Shown here: in pieces, positions 18,523 through 64,000 of the stretch
Position numbering within the stretch: position 1 is the stretch's first letter
Layout: each line of letters begins with the position of its first letter
From: a virus
Reading direction: 5' to 3' (one strand)
Virus record (IMG/VR): IMGVR_UViG_3300037418_002133
Coordinates: 1 to 64,000 of that record
Length of the DNA: 64,000 nt
The notes under the pieces: generated by a model
The model's input: only the letters and a program-made list of their open reading frames with translations
Database searches by the model: none
What the model was told of the DNA's origin: nothing
Position numbers and translations under genes: made by a program

Positions 18523-18819
18523 TTATGGGTTCCAGACCTTCTCAACCTGGTCTTTCGTGATGAACGCCATGGTGATGTCGCCGTTGTTTTTCTGGATGGC
18601 AACCTGACCTAGAGCGGTGCCCTTGGATGAACCAAGCACGATCGCCGGCATACCCTCGATACCCTGGACGCCTTGAAGAAATATTTCCTTGATGACAATC
18701 AGGGTTCCGCGCGGATACGGGAACTGTTCGTTGTCCATCTTGGAGGCGAACTGGCGGAGGAGATCGATGACCAGCTCCGGAGTGGCCTCGACTTCCTGTT
18801 TGACGATCATTGTAGCCAT
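18523..18819 (-). CDS. Hypothetical protein
   Basis: Follows tail fibre gene by 2 bp. Confidence 0.55.
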   Translation of the reverse strand: MATMIVKQEVEATPELVIDLLRQFASKMDNEQFPYPRGTLIVIKEIFLQGVQGIEGMPAIVLGSSKGTALGQVAIQKNNGDITMAFITKDQVEKVWNP

Positions 18820-18821
18820 AA

Positions 18822-20186
18822 TTAGTCCTGTGTTGTGAGAGCCTTCAACGCTGCGATCTCTGCTGCCTGTGCTTCAACCTTTGCTGAAAGTTTCTGAACA
18901 GCCTCGATTAGCGGAAACAGCAGCTTGTGGGGTGATGCTTCCAGTCGATCTGGATTTGTCTTATCGACAAGTCCGAAATCGACACCAAAATCGGTCTGAA
19001 TTGTATCCAGTTCCTGCGCGAAAACACCTGCCTCCGGAGCGTCGCCGCGGTCAGTACCGTCACGCATGTTCCATTTAAACCAGCGAACGGTCACGTTGTT
19101 GATGAAATCCAGCGCGTCGATCGGTAGACGACCATCACCCTCCTCGATCTTATCGCGTTGATCCGAAATCGCCGTAATGGATGTCTGAGCGCATCGAAGC
19201 GATGTAATGGCGGTGTCGCCCAGGACGACAACATTGCTCGCGTTAGCGAGAGCGTTGTTGCCTATACAAGAGGTGTTGGTGAAATCACCATTCGGACCGG
19301 AGCCAAAACCTAACGCGGTGTTACGATTGCCCGTGATCAAGCTCGCGCCGGTCAGATATCCAAGGAAGACATTGTATTGCCCCGTGGAAATATTCTTGCC
19401 GGCCGTGTCGCCGATCATAACGTTGCCAATGCCTGACGACAGGTTCGTCAGAACGTCATTTCCGAGGCCAATATTATGACCTCCCGTTACATCGACCGTT
19501 TGGGCAACACGCGAACCGATGAAGATATTCTTGTCGGCCTTGTTGAGTGTTCCGGCCTGGTTTCCGATGAGAATGCAGTCACTGTAGGAATAGACAGTGG
19601 TGGGAGCTGCGATATTGCCCGCGCCGGCTGTGTAGCCGATGACAATGCTGTTTGCGATAGTACCCGCACTAAAGCCCGCGAACGAACCCGCAATAAAGCT
19701 CAGATTGACGGTGTCTTTGTAAGTGCAACAGTGCGCACCAACCGCCGTCGAAGCATCGAGCGATGTTGTGAACGAAAAGCAATCAATTCCGTAACCAGTA
19801 CCATAGGTCGCGCCGACGAGCTTCGAACCTGTTCGAAAGCCCATCATCGTCATGCCATAAACATCAACCGCATCGCCGAGCACGGCATTGCCAATGCCGA
19901 TGCTAATCGTTGCCCGATCGTTGGCGGTTGTGAGAATATCCTGCCCTACCAGAATATTGCCCTTACCGGTAAGAAGTGAGTCGGTGTCGTAAACCGGCGT
20001 CGGGCGGATATTCTTGCCGAGGTGAAACTCATTGATGGTCGGATTATAGAGAGACGGCGACCACGCATCCATATTAACGGCGCCAGTCAATGAGGCTGAC
20101 AGAGCCGCGGTATCCGAAGCCTCAAATACCGCTCGACCTGATGTGCCAGCAGGTTTAGCAACGGCCTTATCGAGTGCGCGAGTCAT
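18822..20186 (-). CDS. Tail fibre/spike with C-terminal intramolecular chaperone (peptidase S74-like)
   Basis: Repeated N..IG..AG units; ISDQRDK...GVFAQEL...LIEAVQKLSAKVE. Confidence 0.8.
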   Translation of the reverse strand: MTRALDKAVAKPAGTSGRAVFEASDTAALSASLTGAVNMDAWSPSLYNPTINEFHLGKNIRPTPVYDTDSLLTGKGNILVGQDILTTANDRATISIGIGNAVLGDAVDVYGMTMMGFRTGSKLVGATYGTGYGIDCFSFTTSLDASTAVGAHCCTYKDTVNLSFIAGSFAGFSAGTIANSIVIGYTAGAGNIAAPTTVYSYSDCILIGNQAGTLNKADKNIFIGSRVAQTVDVTGGHNIGLGNDVLTNLSSGIGNVMIGDTAGKNISTGQYNVFLGYLTGASLITGNRNTALGFGSGPNGDFTNTSCIGNNALANASNVVVLGDTAITSLRCAQTSITAISDQRDKIEEGDGRLPIDALDFINNVTVRWFKWNMRDGTDRGDAPEAGVFAQELDTIQTDFGVDFGLVDKTNPDRLEASPHKLLFPLIEAVQKLSAKVEAQAAEIAALKALTTQD

Positions 20187-51412: not shown

Positions 51413-51712
51413 TTAGTGGAGAGCTTCGCCATCTTCCGGAACTGGATCCGGCGTTGCCATGAAGACGGTAAATCCTTTTGTCGTTGGCGCGATCGTGGCG
51501 CTCCGGTTGCCGTGCCTGGTCGTGGCGATCATGCCGTGTCGCTCCAGCGCGCGCAGCGAACAGGTGATCGCCTGTTTACTGACCGGGCCGTATGACACGC
51601 CGGCACAAAGATCGTTGGTGGTGATCTCTACGCCGGTTGACGTTGCCTCGCAGATCAGCCGCATGATCTCGCGTTGTTTCCGGGAATTGGCAAATTCGTT
51701 TCGCGCCGGCAT
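51413..51712 (-). CDS. Winged-helix DNA-binding protein
   Basis: SKQAITCSLRALERHGMI...PTTKG. Confidence 0.75.
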   Translation of the reverse strand: MPARNEFANSRKQREIMRLICEATSTGVEITTNDLCAGVSYGPVSKQAITCSLRALERHGMIATTRHGNRSATIAPTTKGFTVFMATPDPVPEDGEALH

Positions 51713-52620
51713 TACTCGCCTCGGAACGGCGCGTTAGGCGCCTGTCGGTCGAATGCGGTAAGGGGAAGACGCTGGGGAATGGTGCCGTGACGATCCGGAT
51801 TGGTCCAGATGCCGTACATTGGCGAAGCCAGCACAATCTGCTGGAGCCCCTTAATGATAGTCCTTTCGGACATGGCGTCAACCCTGCCCTGTCCGCGGTC
51901 GCGATTGTTGCCAGTCTTCTCAAGCGCGGAATGGCGATAGTAGAAGTCCTTGCAGAGCTGCAACAAACGCTCGCGCTCGGCCGGCGGTTTGGCTTGCAGC
52001 TCGGCCAGGATTGCCTCGAAATCCTGCGGACTGCTCTCGAAATGGGTCCGGAAGAACTTCAGCCCGATCTCGTATTTGTTGGCGTTCAACGGGCGCACGA
52101 AGCGAAAGCCCGCCTTCTGGCCGAACAGATTGAACTTCGACATCGAGGACTGGATCTCCATGAAGGTGTTGCCCTCCATGCGCGAGACCAGGTTCATCAT
52201 CCGGTAGCCGCAGCCGATGCCGCGATACATGGTGTCCACGACGAACCGCGAGACCACACGGAAGTTCTTGTTGATGAACTTGTACCGATAGGTGTTGGTG
52301 ATCTTGGTGTCGCCGGCGCCAGGCTTGAGATTCTTGAACACCAGATGCCGCTCCTTGAGCAGCCCCTTCGGGTTGCCGGTGACCAGCACGCCAATGGTCT
52401 CGCCGAACAGCGTCAGTTTCCAGAAATGCGGCCCGATCGGCAGGTTTTCCGCCTTGTAGTGAAGATCGTGCAGCAGATTCCAGTCAGAAATGTCTCCCTT
52501 CTCGACAAACATGCTCTCAAGCAGCGGGAAACAGGGCGCCGGTGCGTCCACACGCTCTATCAGCGTATCATATGCGTCAGCACTCTCGGACGCACCGGTG
52601 AGCTTCTCTGCGAACGGCAT
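51712..52620 (-). CDS. GNAT-fold (Mom-like) acyltransferase
   Basis: LHY motif, SRFVVDTMYRGIGCG acyl-CoA binding motif, M.KFNLF..KAGF; ATG at 52620. Confidence 0.8.
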   Translation of the reverse strand: MPFAEKLTGASESADAYDTLIERVDAPAPCFPLLESMFVEKGDISDWNLLHDLHYKAENLPIGPHFWKLTLFGETIGVLVTGNPKGLLKERHLVFKNLKPGAGDTKITNTYRYKFINKNFRVVSRFVVDTMYRGIGCGYRMMNLVSRMEGNTFMEIQSSMSKFNLFGQKAGFRFVRPLNANKYEIGLKFFRTHFESSPQDFEAILAELQAKPPAERERLLQLCKDFYYRHSALEKTGNNRDRGQGRVDAMSERTIIKGLQQIVLASPMYGIWTNPDRHGTIPQRLPLTAFDRQAPNAPFRGE

Positions 52621-52622
52621 GG

Positions 52623-52928
52623 TCAGTCGACGATCTGCCAATCCTCGGCGAGAAGATCGGTCTGCGACGCGACCCACGGCACAACATCGCCTTGAGCGGT
52701 CTTCATGTCGATGTGACCGTGATACTGGATCTCGGTGCCTTCCGGGTAGATCCCCAGAAGCGGCGGGCGATTCACCTTGAAGGTCGAGCCACGCACCAGA
52801 AACAGGAACATGCCCTTGCCGTTCCAGCCGGCACGGGCGACGCGCGCTCCATCCTTGATCGCAACGAGGGCGCTGGAAAACGAAAAGCCACCCTGTCTGG
52901 TTCGCTGCGTCAAAACTTCTTCGGTCAT
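52623..52928 (-). CDS. DUF2829 / Tad2-family protein
   Basis: FSSAL.AIK.G.RVARAGWNGKGMF...PWVASQTDLLAEDW. Confidence 0.85.
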   Translation of the reverse strand: MTEEVLTQRTRQGGFSFSSALVAIKDGARVARAGWNGKGMFLFLVRGSTFKVNRPPLLGIYPEGTEIQYHGHIDMKTAQGDVVPWVASQTDLLAEDWQIVD

Positions 52929-57339: not shown

Positions 57340-57951
57340 ATGACAAACCCCGACAGTCTTCCCCGCTACATCGGCATTTGCGGCAATCCGAAGTCCGGTA
57401 AGTCGCTGGTTCAGCAGATTCTGATGGAACATTACAACGTCACGCCGGTCGATGACGGTTTCATCCTACGTTCGATCGCCATGCAGCATATGGGCGCCAG
57501 TCACAACGACGTTCACACCCAAGAAGGCAAGGCGCAGTTGGCCTATTGGCCCGACAAGACGCCGATCCTTGATGATCGCACCGGCGAGCATATGACCTGG
57601 CGTCTCGTGCTCGGTCGCGTTGGTGAACAGCTTGAACGTCTGATCGGCCCCTATGTAATGCCGATGACCGCGTGCGCGGCGTTGAGCGGCCCAGGCCCCT
57701 TCTCGTTCGGCTCGGTGCGCAAGGTGCAGGGCCGCTACTTCAAGGAGCGCGGCGGACTGATCATCGGCGTGCGCAACCCGATGGCGCAGCCGACCGGCAA
57801 TGCTTTCGACGTGTTCGACGAGAGCCTGGTCGACGTCTGGATCGAGAACGACGCGCTCTACCGCGGACTGAGCCATCGCGAGGCATTGGCGGATCTGGAA
57901 ACCAAGGTTGATCAGCTTGTTGCTGACTGCTCTTGGGCGCGAGCCGCCTGA
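57340..57951 (+). CDS. Deoxynucleoside monophosphate kinase-like protein
   Basis: IGICGNPKSGKS P-loop, T.R.VL..VG, I.ND. Confidence 0.75.
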   Translation: MTNPDSLPRYIGICGNPKSGKSLVQQILMEHYNVTPVDDGFILRSIAMQHMGASHNDVHTQEGKAQLAYWPDKTPILDDRTGEHMTWRLVLGRVGEQLERLIGPYVMPMTACAALSGPGPFSFGSVRKVQGRYFKERGGLIIGVRNPMAQPTGNAFDVFDESLVDVWIENDALYRGLSHREALADLETKVDQLVADCSWARAA

Positions 57952-60671: not shown

Positions 60672-61160
60672 CCTGCGACAAGGTTAGGGCAATATTCCTA
60701 TTGGTGCGGGGATCCGGATGATGTATCCGGGAGTTGGCATGGGTCAATTCTTGTGACAAGGTTAGGACGGAAAAGCTGTCGAGGGGCCAGAAGGCAATGC
60801 CTTCGCTGCATCGCACAAAAACCTAAGACATCGCATCTGTTGCAATTATGCAACACACGACGCGTCCCGCGAAACGCGTGACATTTCCGCAACACAGCGT
60901 TTCTTGCGATTCTGTGTTTGTGCAGCGCACAATAAAATAAACACGATTTCGCATTGCAACATGCTATGCGCAAAATGCATAACACGATTTAGTTAAGTAG
61001 TGATAATTATGTCACACGTGCTGCTGCAACAAATCTGTAGCATGATCAAGTCACGAATTGTTACACTCTGTAACATCATGTGATTTGTTCGCGTTGCTGT
61101 AACACGTTATAACTTAGTCACGTTAGCAATGACGCTAACACTACAGAGTGAGAAACGACG

Positions 61161-61778
61161 ATGACGAAAGTTAATGACAAGATCGCGAACTACGTTGCAG
61201 AACTCAACAGCGCGCTTGACGCTCGCGCTTCGTATGAACACGACAAGAGCGCTGCGAACGACTCGATTCAGACGTGCATCGCAGCGCTTCGTAAGAGCGT
61301 CACACACGTCGATATTGCGAGCGTGCTACTCTCATGCGACGTCGATTCAAACTTCATCAATCGCAGCGAGCGTTCGAATAATCGTTATAACGTCTACGCT
61401 GCACAGAAAGTCGACAACGTCGCGCGCGCTGTCAAAAGCGTTGCAGAACTGAATCACTATTCGCTTGCGATCTTGCGCGTTGCGCTCGCTGTCGAAAAGA
61501 TCGACTCTAAGCTGTCGCACAAAGACGCTGTAGCAGCGTGCAGCGCGTCTGTGAAGCACAGCGACGCGAAGCGCGAATCAATCATCAAGTCGCTACGCTA
61601 CGCAAAGCACGTCGCTGCAAATACAGCGTCAACGCAATCGTCGTCGTCGATTAACGCGCTTCAAACGTGTCACATTCTGAGCGAAGCGCGCGATGCTGCG
61701 AACAACATCGTCTACAGCGTCAATCGCGAGAGCGAAGCGTTCAAGACGCTCGCGAAGAGATACGAACTCGCGATCTGA
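61161..61778 (+). CDS. 205-aa protein lacking Gly, Pro and Trp; possible C-terminal winged helix
   Basis: Intact ORF with GAGAAACGACG-ATG leader and downstream hairpin; fold is a guess. Confidence 0.8.
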   Translation: MTKVNDKIANYVAELNSALDARASYEHDKSAANDSIQTCIAALRKSVTHVDIASVLLSCDVDSNFINRSERSNNRYNVYAAQKVDNVARAVKSVAELNHYSLAILRVALAVEKIDSKLSHKDAVAACSASVKHSDAKRESIIKSLRYAKHVAANTASTQSSSSINALQTCHILSEARDAANNIVYSVNRESEAFKTLAKRYELAI

Positions 61779-61788
61779 CAACGCAATG

Positions 61789-61816
61789 CAGAGTGACGCT
61801 TCACAGCGTCACTCTG
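61789..61816. terminator. 12-bp hairpin after the island gene (terminator or processing site)
   Basis: CAGAGTGACGCT-tcac-AGCGTCACTCTG. Confidence 0.55.
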
Positions 61817-61880
61817 TAACATCACTTAATCAAGTCACCGCAAACACAGAGCTAGAACAATGCAGCATGAGAAACGACTA

Positions 61881-62045
61881 ATGAAGCAACGCGAATCAGC
61901 GCGCGTCGAAAAGTACAAGCGCGCGTTTGACTGCGACTCTGTTGACGCTGATTATCTATTCGACGACGTCGCACGCGACTGTGACGCGACGTTAGCAGCG
62001 ATCGAACTGCGAGAATCGATCACGCGCTACGCGATAGCGCACTAG
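61881..62045 (+). CDS. 54-aa acidic protein lacking Gly, Pro and Trp
   Basis: Same TGAGAAACGAC leader as 61161; ATG at 61881. Confidence 0.6.
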   Translation: MKQRESARVEKYKRAFDCDSVDADYLFDDVARDCDATLAAIELRESITRYAIAH

Positions 62046-62056
62046 ACGCGTGACAT

Positions 62057-62097
62057 AGTCGAAAGTCTATAGACGAAAGTTTATTAGACTTTCGACT
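62057..62097. repeat. 13-bp inverted repeat closing the island
   Basis: AGTCGAAAGTCTA...TAGACTTTCGACT. Confidence 0.8.
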
Positions 62098-62127
62098 GTG
62101 ACATTTAAGCCTCACTGTTGCTCTGAA

Positions 62128-62161
62128 GCCACTGTGGTATGCCCGCCACAGTGGCATTTTT
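62128..62161 (+). terminator. Rho-independent terminator
   Basis: GCCACTGTGG/CCACAGTGGC stem plus ATTTTT. Confidence 0.65.
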
Positions 62162-62169
62162 GCCACAGG

Positions 62170-62360
62170 CGAACCCCATGGGGAGGGTAAGGCAGACCTG
62201 AAATCCCAAGGATTTCAAGCGGTCTGCCGATCCCATGGATCCCACCGGTTCCTAATCCCATACCTAGTGACCGGTTCCCATGCCCATCCATGGCGATCGG
62301 TTCCGGACGCCAAAACCCATGGCAGGCTTCCTTGCCGGACAGGGCACCCATAGCAGGCGC
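62170..62360. repeat. CCATGG/CCGGTTCC-rich block 1
   Basis: CCATGG at 62176, 62233, 62288, 62317. Confidence 0.8.
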
Positions 62361-62380
62361 CCTCTCCTTTTGGCTGCTGG

Positions 62381-62548
62381 CTACTCCTCGGCTGTGCCAG
62401 GCACCATCCACACCGACGAGGAAGCCCCGTAGACGTCAGTACGACGAGCGAACATCGACGACATGCGAGCGATTTCCATGAGCTTGTTTATGCATCCGAA
62501 GCGCATAAGCCCAAACGTATTCAACTTGGGCTGATAGAGGATGATCAT
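62381..62548 (-). CDS. Small hypothetical protein
   Basis: GAGGA RBS plus ATG at 62548. Confidence 0.45.
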   Translation of the reverse strand: MIILYQPKLNTFGLMRFGCINKLMEIARMSSMFARRTDVYGASSSVWMVPGTAEE

Positions 62549-62558
62549 GGTGTTTTCC

Positions 62559-62630
62559 TCAGATGAAGAAGGCGGCGATGATGAAGGCCCCAACGATCAT
62601 GATGGGGTAGCTGATGAACTCGTCGAGCAT
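62559..62630 (-). CDS. 23-aa hydrophobic micropeptide MLDEFISYPIMIVGAFIIAAFFI
   Basis: ATG overlaps the upstream stop (TGATG); fills the gap between two genes. Confidence 0.55.
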   Translation of the reverse strand: MLDEFISYPIMIVGAFIIAAFFI

Positions 62631-62866
62631 CACTGGAACTCCACCGGTACGAAGCCGAGGCTGCGGCTGGCGTTCTCCAGGTGCGACCGGGCGATGTCGA
62701 GGGAATATATTCCGCTCTCGTCCTTGGAGATTTGCTTCACCGCAGCGTTGAGCCAGGTCAGGGCGTAGCGCAGGTGTTCCTCAGCGTCGGTATCGGCGAA
62801 GCGACCGATAGCGTTCAGGACGCTCATACGGGCGCGATTGACGAGTGCGAGGCGCTTGCTTCTCAT
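62630..62866 (-). CDS. Small hypothetical protein
   Basis: GGAG RBS. Confidence 0.6.
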   Translation of the reverse strand: MRSKRLALVNRARMSVLNAIGRFADTDAEEHLRYALTWLNAAVKQISKDESGIYSLDIARSHLENASRSLGFVPVEFQ

Positions 62867-63076
62867 TTTCGATCTCCGTGTTTGCTCAACACAAAGATCG
62901 TCGCATATCGCCTTGTGGGATGCGGTCGGGCGTATAAGGCGAGTTTATACGGCCTGGCGTTTACGGACCGGCCTGGCGATGGAAGACGGCCTGGCCGAGG
63001 ATGACCGGACCGGCCTGAAGCCCATGGAGCGCCATGCCTGCCCATGGAGGACCGAGGGATCTCTAAGGGCGCGTAA

Positions 63077-63110
63077 AACCCTATAGATATATAAATATAT
63101 CTATAGGGTT
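63077..63110. repeat. AT-rich palindrome with 16-bp arms
   Basis: AACCCTATAGATATAT-aa-ATATATCTATAGGGTT. Confidence 0.9.
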
Positions 63111-63123
63111 GGGATGCGAACGG

Positions 63124-63390
63124 CTACGCGAGGCAAAGCTCGCTGGACTGACGGGCTGCTTCTTCGATGCACAGCGCGACGAGGTGCTGGGCGTTGAAGG
63201 CTTTCTCGTGGAGCATCGCTTCGTTGATCGCGGGATCGATCTTGCTGATGGTCATTTCGTTGGTGTCGTAGTTGTAGGACGACGTGAACAGCACGGTATC
63301 TTTGTAGATCGCGCTGAAGGCGCATTCGGGGTTCATCGGGTGCGCGTCGTTGGAAAGCTCGATCTTGATGGTCTTGAGGGTGCTTTGCAT
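63124..63390 (-). CDS. 88-aa protein, GG-free coding strand (no Gly or Trp)
   Basis: GAGAG RBS; no CC on the + strand across the gene. Confidence 0.7.
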   Translation of the reverse strand: MQSTLKTIKIELSNDAHPMNPECAFSAIYKDTVLFTSSYNYDTNEMTISKIDPAINEAMLHEKAFNAQHLVALCIEEAARQSSELCLA

Positions 63391-63453
63391 GTTAGCTCTC
63401 GTTTGTGTGAACGTGAGAACTATCTCACGTTCACTTTTGGGATGCGAACGGGC

Positions 63454-63744
63454 TCAGACGGTCATGTCGAAGGAGATCTTCATGGTCTCGTCGACGATCA
63501 GCTTGCGGAGGGTTTCACTGGAGTTGCAGCGGTAGTAGACGCTGTCTCCCGCAGCAGCTTGCGCGTCGTTGGGATCGAACTCGCTGTCATGGAGCTGCGT
63601 GACGCGCACAGCGAAGCATTTGGTGTCGTCTTTGGCGATCGCGCACGCTTCGATGACGGTCCTTTGGTTCATGACGGAGAAGAAGCGCTCGCCTAAGTCT
63701 TGCGACATGAGGGAATCGAAAGTGGTTTTGTCGATCTGGTGCAT
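63454..63744 (-). CDS. 96-aa protein, GG-depleted coding strand
   Basis: GAGAG RBS, ATG at 63744, downstream of TATACT and the palindrome. Confidence 0.7.
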   Translation of the reverse strand: MHQIDKTTFDSLMSQDLGERFFSVMNQRTVIEACAIAKDDTKCFAVRVTQLHDSEFDPNDAQAAAGDSVYYRCNSSETLRKLIVDETMKISFDMTV

Positions 63745-63869
63745 GTTTTGCTCTCGCTGTGAAAATAAGTCAGTTCTGACATACGACAGTATAGCTAGGA
63801 ATGCGAGCGGCGGCTCGTGGTGCGTCCGTTGGGGTATCGAGCTGGGTCTGTAGCTTAGGAGCGCTAAGG

Positions 63870-64000
63870 ACGCACCATGGGGCTTCCCTAGCGATTTCCC
63901 ATGGGAAGCCATGGTTCGCCTCGGGACACCACGGCCGCGCCCTCTCCAAAAATCCGCCTTGGTTCGCCAATCGGTCGGTCCCATGGACCCCACCGGTTCC
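63870..64000. repeat. CCATGG-rich block 3
   Basis: CCATGG at 63875, 63899, 63909, 63981; 63979-64000 matches 62231-62252 at 21/22. Confidence 0.8.

Follow-up and report, generated by a model that had tools for sequence, protein, structure and literature searches.

The window analysed here (the first 64,000 nucleotides, 64 kb, of IMG/VR virus record IMGVR_UViG_3300037418_002133) carries near its right-hand end two small minus-strand genes, P96 and P88, whose message strand is purged of the dinucleotide GG, and to their left an island of plus-strand genes purged of GG and CC on both strands (Table 1). The island is referred to below as the first tier and the one-sided unit as the second tier. 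The phage record as a whole is 116,086 bp long, and its two ends share a 127-bp overlap (an assembly overlap). Genes in the window include those for a tape-measure protein, a GpJ-like tail tip, the large terminase and ParA. The terminase shares 58–64% identity with those of Rhizobium phages RHEph10, RHph_N1_10, B1VFA and V1VFA-S, with Pseudomonas phage nickie and the phage-plasmid SSU5 as more remote relatives, and the source is a 116-kb soil siphophage of the RHEph10/SSU5-like phage-plasmid group. Using codon statistics, 153 genes were called, 136 of them on the minus strand. Contigs with sequence identical to the window were present in several soil and rhizosphere metagenome runs, so the one-sided stretch is no assembly artefact; contigs from four runs were compared, and all were identical to the window, with no variants. 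No RNA run was among those listed with the sequence.

Table 1. Coordinates of the purged units, their neighbours and the candidate marking enzyme (window numbering, continued past position 64,000 for P280).
Feature	Position	Strand	Remarks
GNAT-fold protein (303 aa)	51712–52623	−	neighbours: an ABC-type ATPase, two ParB-N proteins
First-tier island	60793–62136	+	no GG over 60794–62135; single CC (61838) between 60889 and 62109
Gene P205, winged-helix protein	61161–61778	+	in first-tier island
Second island gene	61860/61881–62045	+	in first-tier island
Interval of ordinary GG/CC content	62137–63076		~940 bp between the two purged units; holds P78
Gene P78	62630–62866	−	unpurged: GG 4.6, CC 8.9 per 100 nt; RBS GGAG; same promoter-like motif
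Terminator-like perfect 16+16-nt hairpin, then TTTT	63077–63110	−	closes the one-sided unit
CC-free run	63082–63547	+	42 GG; equals no GG on the minus-strand message
Gene P88 (88 aa)	63124–63390	−	message strand 0 GG, 25 CC; GC3 0.84; RBS GAGAG
Intergenic hairpin without GG or CC	63408–63435	−	between P96 and P88
15-nt promoter-like motif (CGCATYCC element)	63437–63451	−	~47 nt ahead of P88 start; exact repeat at 63109–63123
Gene P96 (96 aa)	63454–63744	−	message strand 4 GG, 20 CC; GC3 0.80; RBS GAGAG
5' leader and promoter-like region	63745–63826	−	CGCATTCC motif at 63796–63810; TATACT/GTATGT box
Gene P280 (280 aa)	64079–64921 (L001:4780–5622)	−	just past window end; paralogue of P205

Plus-strand CC was located at 63079/63080, next at 63548/63549 (as CCC), and then at 63661, 63692 and 63826. 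The first-pass annotation of this DNA had reported a run from 63082 to 63547 without CC on the plus strand and with dozens of GG, and only three CC sites through 63825 (63548, 63661, 63692), and both counts were reproduced. Outside this neighbourhood, no CC gap in the 116,086-bp genome is longer than 152 bp, and windows of 468 bp contained a mean of 30 CC, with a minimum of 7 elsewhere in the genome. Minus-strand P88 and P96 are real genes, with codon scores of 0.36 and 0.28 per codon, respectively, against a training mean (long genes) of 0.22, and a 195-aa plus-strand ORF running across both (GC3 0.51) was rejected as a shadow. Message-strand GG amounted to 0 per 100 nt in P88 and 1.4 in P96, compared with a genome median of 6.6 and 3.17 in the lowest ordinary gene (153 genes), and message-strand CC was normal to high (9.4 and 6.9 per 100 nt). 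An asymmetry within the codon-usage range of small genes, which the annotation had named as the outcome fatal to its idea, is not what these densities give.

P88 contains three Pro and, as annotated, no Gly or Trp, and the four GG sites of P96 fall in two Gly codons, one AGG and one codon junction. Neither protein gave a match in Pfam or PHROGs or a recognisable fold, and leads from the protein atlas were low-scoring. One homologue of P88 was found (92% identity, likewise without Gly or Trp), and none of P96; a metagenome scan for P88 relatives returned none, and the known RNA families gave no match.

The purge is drawn to the scale of transcription units. The stretch from 63077 to 63826 is predicted to be one minus-strand transcription unit, extending from the promoter-like region to the closing hairpin. 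The GG-free zone of the message strand begins 83 nt ahead of the P96 ATG, upstream of the promoter-like element; CC does occur in this leader. The first message-strand GGG sits in the 3' arm of the hairpin at 63077–63110. The 15-nt motif, which reads TTGGGATGCGAACGG on the plus strand, has sites at 63109–63123, 63437–63451, 62915–62929 and 63796–63810 (two copies are identical), stands 45–55 nt upstream of the P96, P88 and P78 starts, and looks like a phage-specific promoter of the form CGCATYCC-N13-TAT. As a mark of the purged class this motif was rejected, since unpurged genes carry it too, among them three near 74022, 76906 and 86000. A separate stretch of the phage genome, 73930–74184, is CC-poor on the plus strand (gaps of 115 and 138 bp) around one promoter-like motif, and lies upstream of a 90-aa gene (73698–73970) found only in island-bearing genomes.

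The first-tier island stops at a terminator (62128–62155), and P205 and the second island gene each have their own repeated promoter/RBS module. The second gene probably starts at the ATG at 61881 rather than at 61860, and the 23 nt ahead of the former duplicate the P205 RBS region (GAGAAACGAC). The island is purged on both strands though all its genes point one way, and the 270–370 bp ahead of its first ATG are purged on both strands too. P205 has no Gly, Pro or Trp and is a paralogue of the ordinary-composition gene P280; the family is present in almost every relative, nearly all of which have both copies, and in the island-less relative L031 both copies are of ordinary composition. AF2 gave a confident model of P205 (pLDDT 94.7) that ends in a winged helix and has weak PDB matches; it suggests a DNA-binding regulator. 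Non-coding spacers saturated with GG and CC (62170–62420, 62940–63060 and 63830–64000) flank the purged units; those between the units carry CCATGG and GGCCTGGC repeats, and a 21-bp unit at 62233 is repeated at 63980. CCATGG-type repeats were also seen in relatives, for instance L011. The annotation's reading of the P96–P88 stretch as a strand-asymmetric second tier of one constraint is upheld, as it covers a whole transcription unit, adjoins the two-strand island and recurs in non-homologous small genes of relatives (below).

The rule acts on nucleotides and not on amino acids, because codon junctions and ribosome-binding sites are purged as well. At NNG|GNN junctions, the share among G-starting codons was 26.7% in ordinary genes, and the counts were 0/25 in P88, 1/33 in P96 and 0/74 in P205. 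When P88 was redrawn synonymously from the phage's own codon usage with the protein kept, the redraws carried a mean of 7.1 GG, and none of 20,000 was free of GG. Chance or codon usage as the cause was therefore rejected by the GG densities of the called genes, the junction counts and the P88 redraws together. As Shine-Dalgarno sequence both P88 and P96 have GAGAG, as the annotation had it, 6–7 nt upstream of the ATG. A GG-containing Shine-Dalgarno core was present in 80 of 147 ordinary genes, and every GG-free gene of the phage family has a GA-only ribosome-binding site.

The pattern is due to selection rather than mutation, since CG and GC are raised and deamination products are not in excess: the odds ratio of CG in purged genes was 1.75 (normal 1.21) and that of GC 1.86 (normal 1.12), while AG, GA, CT and TC were not raised. 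GCGC and CGCG were likewise enriched in purged DNA, and the raised CG and GC read as compensation under selection, not as deamination decay. A deaminase would be expected to leave excess deamination products and a loss of G+C; neither was found, with GC3 at 0.8–0.9. Mutational decay was accordingly rejected on the odds ratios. The related idea of a mutational footprint, in which a strand-specific, CC-directed deaminase repeatedly erased CC on an exposed strand and selection merely tolerated the result, would yield depletion that is local, strand-asymmetric and of either polarity. We regard it as scarcely credible, as it is largely refuted by the dinucleotide odds ratios (CT, TC, TT, AG, GA and AA not enriched, CG and GC strongly up, GC3 0.8–0.9) and is further opposed by intact reading frames without TGG-to-stop decay.

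Relatives were collected with a ParA alignment, which gave 80 IMG/VR loci, and two cultured phages brought the set to 82 loci. The purge is conserved. Within a few kb of ParA, 26 of the 82 loci had a stretch of 450 bp or more with neither GG nor CC, and about 7 further loci had interrupted or one-sided islands, so that there are ~33 island loci in total, cultured Rhizobium phages among them; G+C ranges from 0.49 to 0.64. Four further complete genomes contained exactly one purged neighbourhood each. In the island-less relative L031, a 357-bp stretch (18796–19153; genome position 57362–57719) is without TG on one strand, where 22 are expected.

The second tier recurs among relatives, usually along the message strand. 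One-sided units adjoin the island in at least seven cases, including L011 (two genes), L025, L029, L039, L046 and L078. Their genes lie on the minus strand, code for 76–215 aa, contain 0–0.8 GG and 4–10 CC per 100 nt, have a GC3 of 0.64–0.92 (0.86–0.92 in L011, L046 and L078) and a GA-only RBS, and resemble neither P88 nor P96. The GG-free zone begins 78–160 nt ahead of the ATG and ends at the terminator hairpin, and CC turns up within 2–56 nt upstream. Where the main island gene itself is asymmetric, GG on the message strand is in every case the more strictly banned word, with GG/CC counts of 2/28 in L032, 0/10 in L042, 1/5 in L044, 0/2 in L008 and 1/5 in L011, and the same pattern in L009. 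Overall, the one-sided ban tracks the message strand in about 11 genes and the reverse in 3. The three reversed cases (L022, L030 and L010) are well-supported minus-strand genes that are free of CC from about −60 to the terminator, with normal GG, an AGGAG RBS and a GC3 of 0.62–0.81. The CC-free genes of L022 and L030 belong to one ~110-aa family, which also has GG-poor members (0.6 per 100 nt in L039, 1.7 in L003 and 1.8 in L040) and a normal one in L078. These reversed genes make both "GG in mRNA" and "CC on one physical strand" incomplete as rules. The annotation's statement that GG is avoided on the coding strand only therefore describes the usual polarity in relatives and is not universal.

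Among the few sites that remain in purged genes, residual GG was enriched for GGT (38% vs 20%) and residual CC for ACC (55% vs 24%, P = 9e-6), both in a small sample dominated by few lineages. The residual words are mostly GGTG and CACC, which stand side by side within the same L011 and L025 genes. As GGT and ACC are reverse complements, a single reader is suggested, and the words would fit one factor that reads GG, though not GGTG, on either strand.

A search of the source genome for an enzyme that might act as this reader found no C5 or N4/N6 methyltransferase, TGT or PAPS reductase; RtcB was not found in it either, unlike in RHph_N1_10. The four proteins of the island and the second tier had no match in Pfam or PHROGs, nor did P205, the only protein compared with NCBIfam, have one there. 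The only candidate marking enzyme seen is the 303-aa protein of Table 1, which is highly conserved (50–80% identity across the family), has no Pfam match and is modelled with a GNAT fold (pLDDT 75.6); the 411-aa version given by the ORF caller begins too early. Foldseek returned weak matches to NAT10 and TmcA (cytidine acetyltransferases) and to Mu Mom at E values of 3e-5 to 4e-4, amid many generic GNATs, the Mu Mom match being at E = 4e-4. In GenBank, the RHph_N1_10 copy is labelled as an ABC transporter ATP-binding protein. The 303-aa protein is also encoded in two complete relatives without any island. A phyletic comparison revealed no enzyme specific to island-bearing genomes: present in four island genomes and missing from two island-less ones were five small unknown proteins only, and the island-less pair is too diverged for this to mean much. 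The reader may be host-encoded or not yet recognisable. Three mechanisms had been put forward in the annotation (a transcription-blocking base modification, a GG-specific RNase or RNA modifier, and single-strand exposure); sequence cannot tell them apart, and the known marking enzymes, methyltransferases and TGT included, are absent. Literature searches on GG-dinucleotide depletion in phages and on the named relatives returned no description of the phenomenon.

Our best guess, offered tentatively and ranked only a little above an RNA-level reader of GG, is a transcription-blocking, strand-specific obstacle on the DNA template. Selection keeps the DNA step GG·CC out of a few whole transcription units, with their promoter, leader, genes, internal hairpins and terminator. 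The unit at 60793–62136 is without the step in both orientations, and the unit at 63080–63826 lacks it in one, its template strand being without CC and its RNA consequently without GG. On this proposal, a single factor would read the GG·CC step on DNA and obstruct one strand, that of the CC, by way of a base mark, a nick or a bound protein, and RNA polymerase would be stalled where this obstacle sits on the template strand. Genes needed before the obstacle is removed would be written without the step, in the first tier altogether and in the second on just the template strand. We infer a target in DNA rather than RNA, a block to transcription and early expression of the purged genes. A DNA target is favoured because the island is purged on both strands with unidirectional genes, because the 270–370 bp upstream are purged too, and because the residual words hint at one factor reading either strand; the two-strand purge of the island is not what a rule acting on RNA alone predicts. 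Against the obstacle stand the reversed genes of L022, L030 and L010, which a template-strand CC obstacle does not explain, and the fact that no known marking enzyme is encoded and that the GNAT-fold candidate occurs in island-less relatives as well. Replication genes are unpurged, which would leave the lifting of the block to the purged genes. The broader proposition, to which we give an even chance, is that this large soil phage-plasmid family starts infection under a novel activity reading the GG·CC step on one nucleic-acid strand, be it a DNA mark or lesion or an RNA-targeting enzyme, and that the two immune tiers document which polarity it has and in what order it is overcome.

If RNA were the target instead, an endoribonuclease or RNA modifier, from host defence or phage shut-off, would read GG in single-stranded RNA at the start of infection, and only GG-less messages would survive. 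In favour of this, about 11 one-sided genes follow the message strand and 3 the reverse, the zone stops at the terminator, the terminators and internal hairpins of relatives are mostly GG-less, and the ribosome-binding sites bear the cost. Very short RNA words have precedents in T4 RegB, which cleaves GGAG, in MazF, which cleaves ACA, and in CmdT. CmdT modifies GA in mRNA by ADP-ribosylation (PMC11618068). A word missing from the sense strand only, as in motif-less mRNAs, is what was found at 63080–63826 and in about 10 genes of relatives, but not in the first-tier island, whose message-strand CC ban an RNA target leaves unexplained, together with the two-strand purge of the 270–370 bp upstream and the reverse-complement residual words. 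The CC-free messages of L022, L030 and L010 would moreover require a second enzyme, no RNase was found, and P88 and P96 have no recognisable fold; we rank an RNA target second, nearly as likely as the obstacle on DNA. An enzyme such as an ADP-ribosyltransferase or glycosylase that hits the G of GG in single-stranded DNA, and so damages the displaced non-template strand of heavily transcribed early genes, would predict the observed polarity and a zone that begins near the promoter. Guanine-specific ADP-ribosylation of ssDNA has a precedent in DarT1, which, however, has no GG consensus and was rejected as the GG reader for lack of a consensus motif (PMC11543638). As exposure of both strands would be required to account for the two-strand purge in the first tier, and the reverse-polarity genes are left unexplained, damage to the displaced strand is improbable.

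Very improbable, in our judgement, is avoidance of double-strand cutting or targeting, whether of restriction sites, of an orientation-dependent Type III-like enzyme, or of a CC/GG PAM in first-entering DNA. Purging in either polarity or in both removes inversely oriented site pairs, which would bring the GG-free, CC-free and doubly purged units together, and T5 first-step-transfer DNA and T7 are classical precedents. A restriction site would be a word of 4–8 bp depleted equally on both strands, whereas here GG (one strand) or GG and CC (both) are missing in any context, the P88 message having 0 GG against 25 CC, and no known restriction enzyme matches a 2-bp word. CRISPR PAMs include CC for type I-F and GG for Cas9. 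PAM depletion would be expected in both orientations across all targetable DNA, and what was found is one-sided and covers ~2 kb of a 116-kb genome; one-sided depletion would merely halve the number of PAMs. Between the units lie 940 bp saturated with GG/CC, the remaining genome is unprotected, and the zones track transcription units, not arbitrary DNA segments. The annotation had argued against simple avoidance of dsDNA sites, and the asymmetry, being real and one-sided, bears it out: the one-sided tier rules out ordinary restriction-site or PAM avoidance.

Several known systems offer partial parallels. The T5 first-step-transfer region is without EcoRI sites, and the leading region of T7 has EcoP15I sites in one orientation. 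As in this first-entering DNA, a short word is purged here locally from genes presumed to act first, and as in T7 the bias concerns the strand or orientation of an asymmetric word. The words differ in length (5–6 bp in T5 and T7, 2 bp here), proteins are rewritten here (no Gly or Trp), and the purge follows single transcription units parted by GG/CC-rich spacers. ACA-less mRNAs escape MazF, and motif-less mRNAs in general (MazF, RegB, CmdT) share with the present case a sense-strand-only ban of a very short word over leader and coding region; what sets the present case apart is the two-strand purge of the adjoining first tier and, in some relatives, a ban on the complementary word. Phage CAjan carries 7-deazaguanine at GA/GGC, and Mom of phage Mu is a GNAT-fold adenine modifier. 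In such hypermodification a phage enzyme puts a short-motif mark on virion DNA, and a GNAT-fold protein is encoded here; against the parallel stand the absence of TGT, the generic nature of the GNAT match and the presence of this protein in island-less relatives too. Chlorella virus NYs-1 has a frequent-cutting nickase/methylase pair, of which Nt.CviPII nicks before CCD (PMC3017599). The parallel is with a viral enzyme whose word is CC plus one base and which acts on one strand only; its host, however, is an alga, and the present phage has no methyltransferase.

A single site would be costly, because the ban removes Gly and Trp from proteins and GGAG from ribosome-binding sites. That the ban is kept in dozens of diverged phages implies that something with two-letter specificity is at work, probably at the start of infection. 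Most is learnt from the one-sided tier, which shows a strand-specific reader at the scale of transcription units. Once identified, the reader could prove to be a new phage DNA mark, a shut-off nuclease or a host defence, and the purge could serve as a sequence signature for the first-expressed genes of uncultured phages. Cultured Rhizobium phages with the same island, RHph_N1_10 and V1VFA-S, make the question directly testable. Among the relatives, the RHph_N1_10 record (L085/L086) is annotated with a T5-like A1 protein, two ATP-dependent DNA ligases, a WGR-domain protein and RtcB, and also with rIIA/rIIB, a sigma-70-family factor and RepC.
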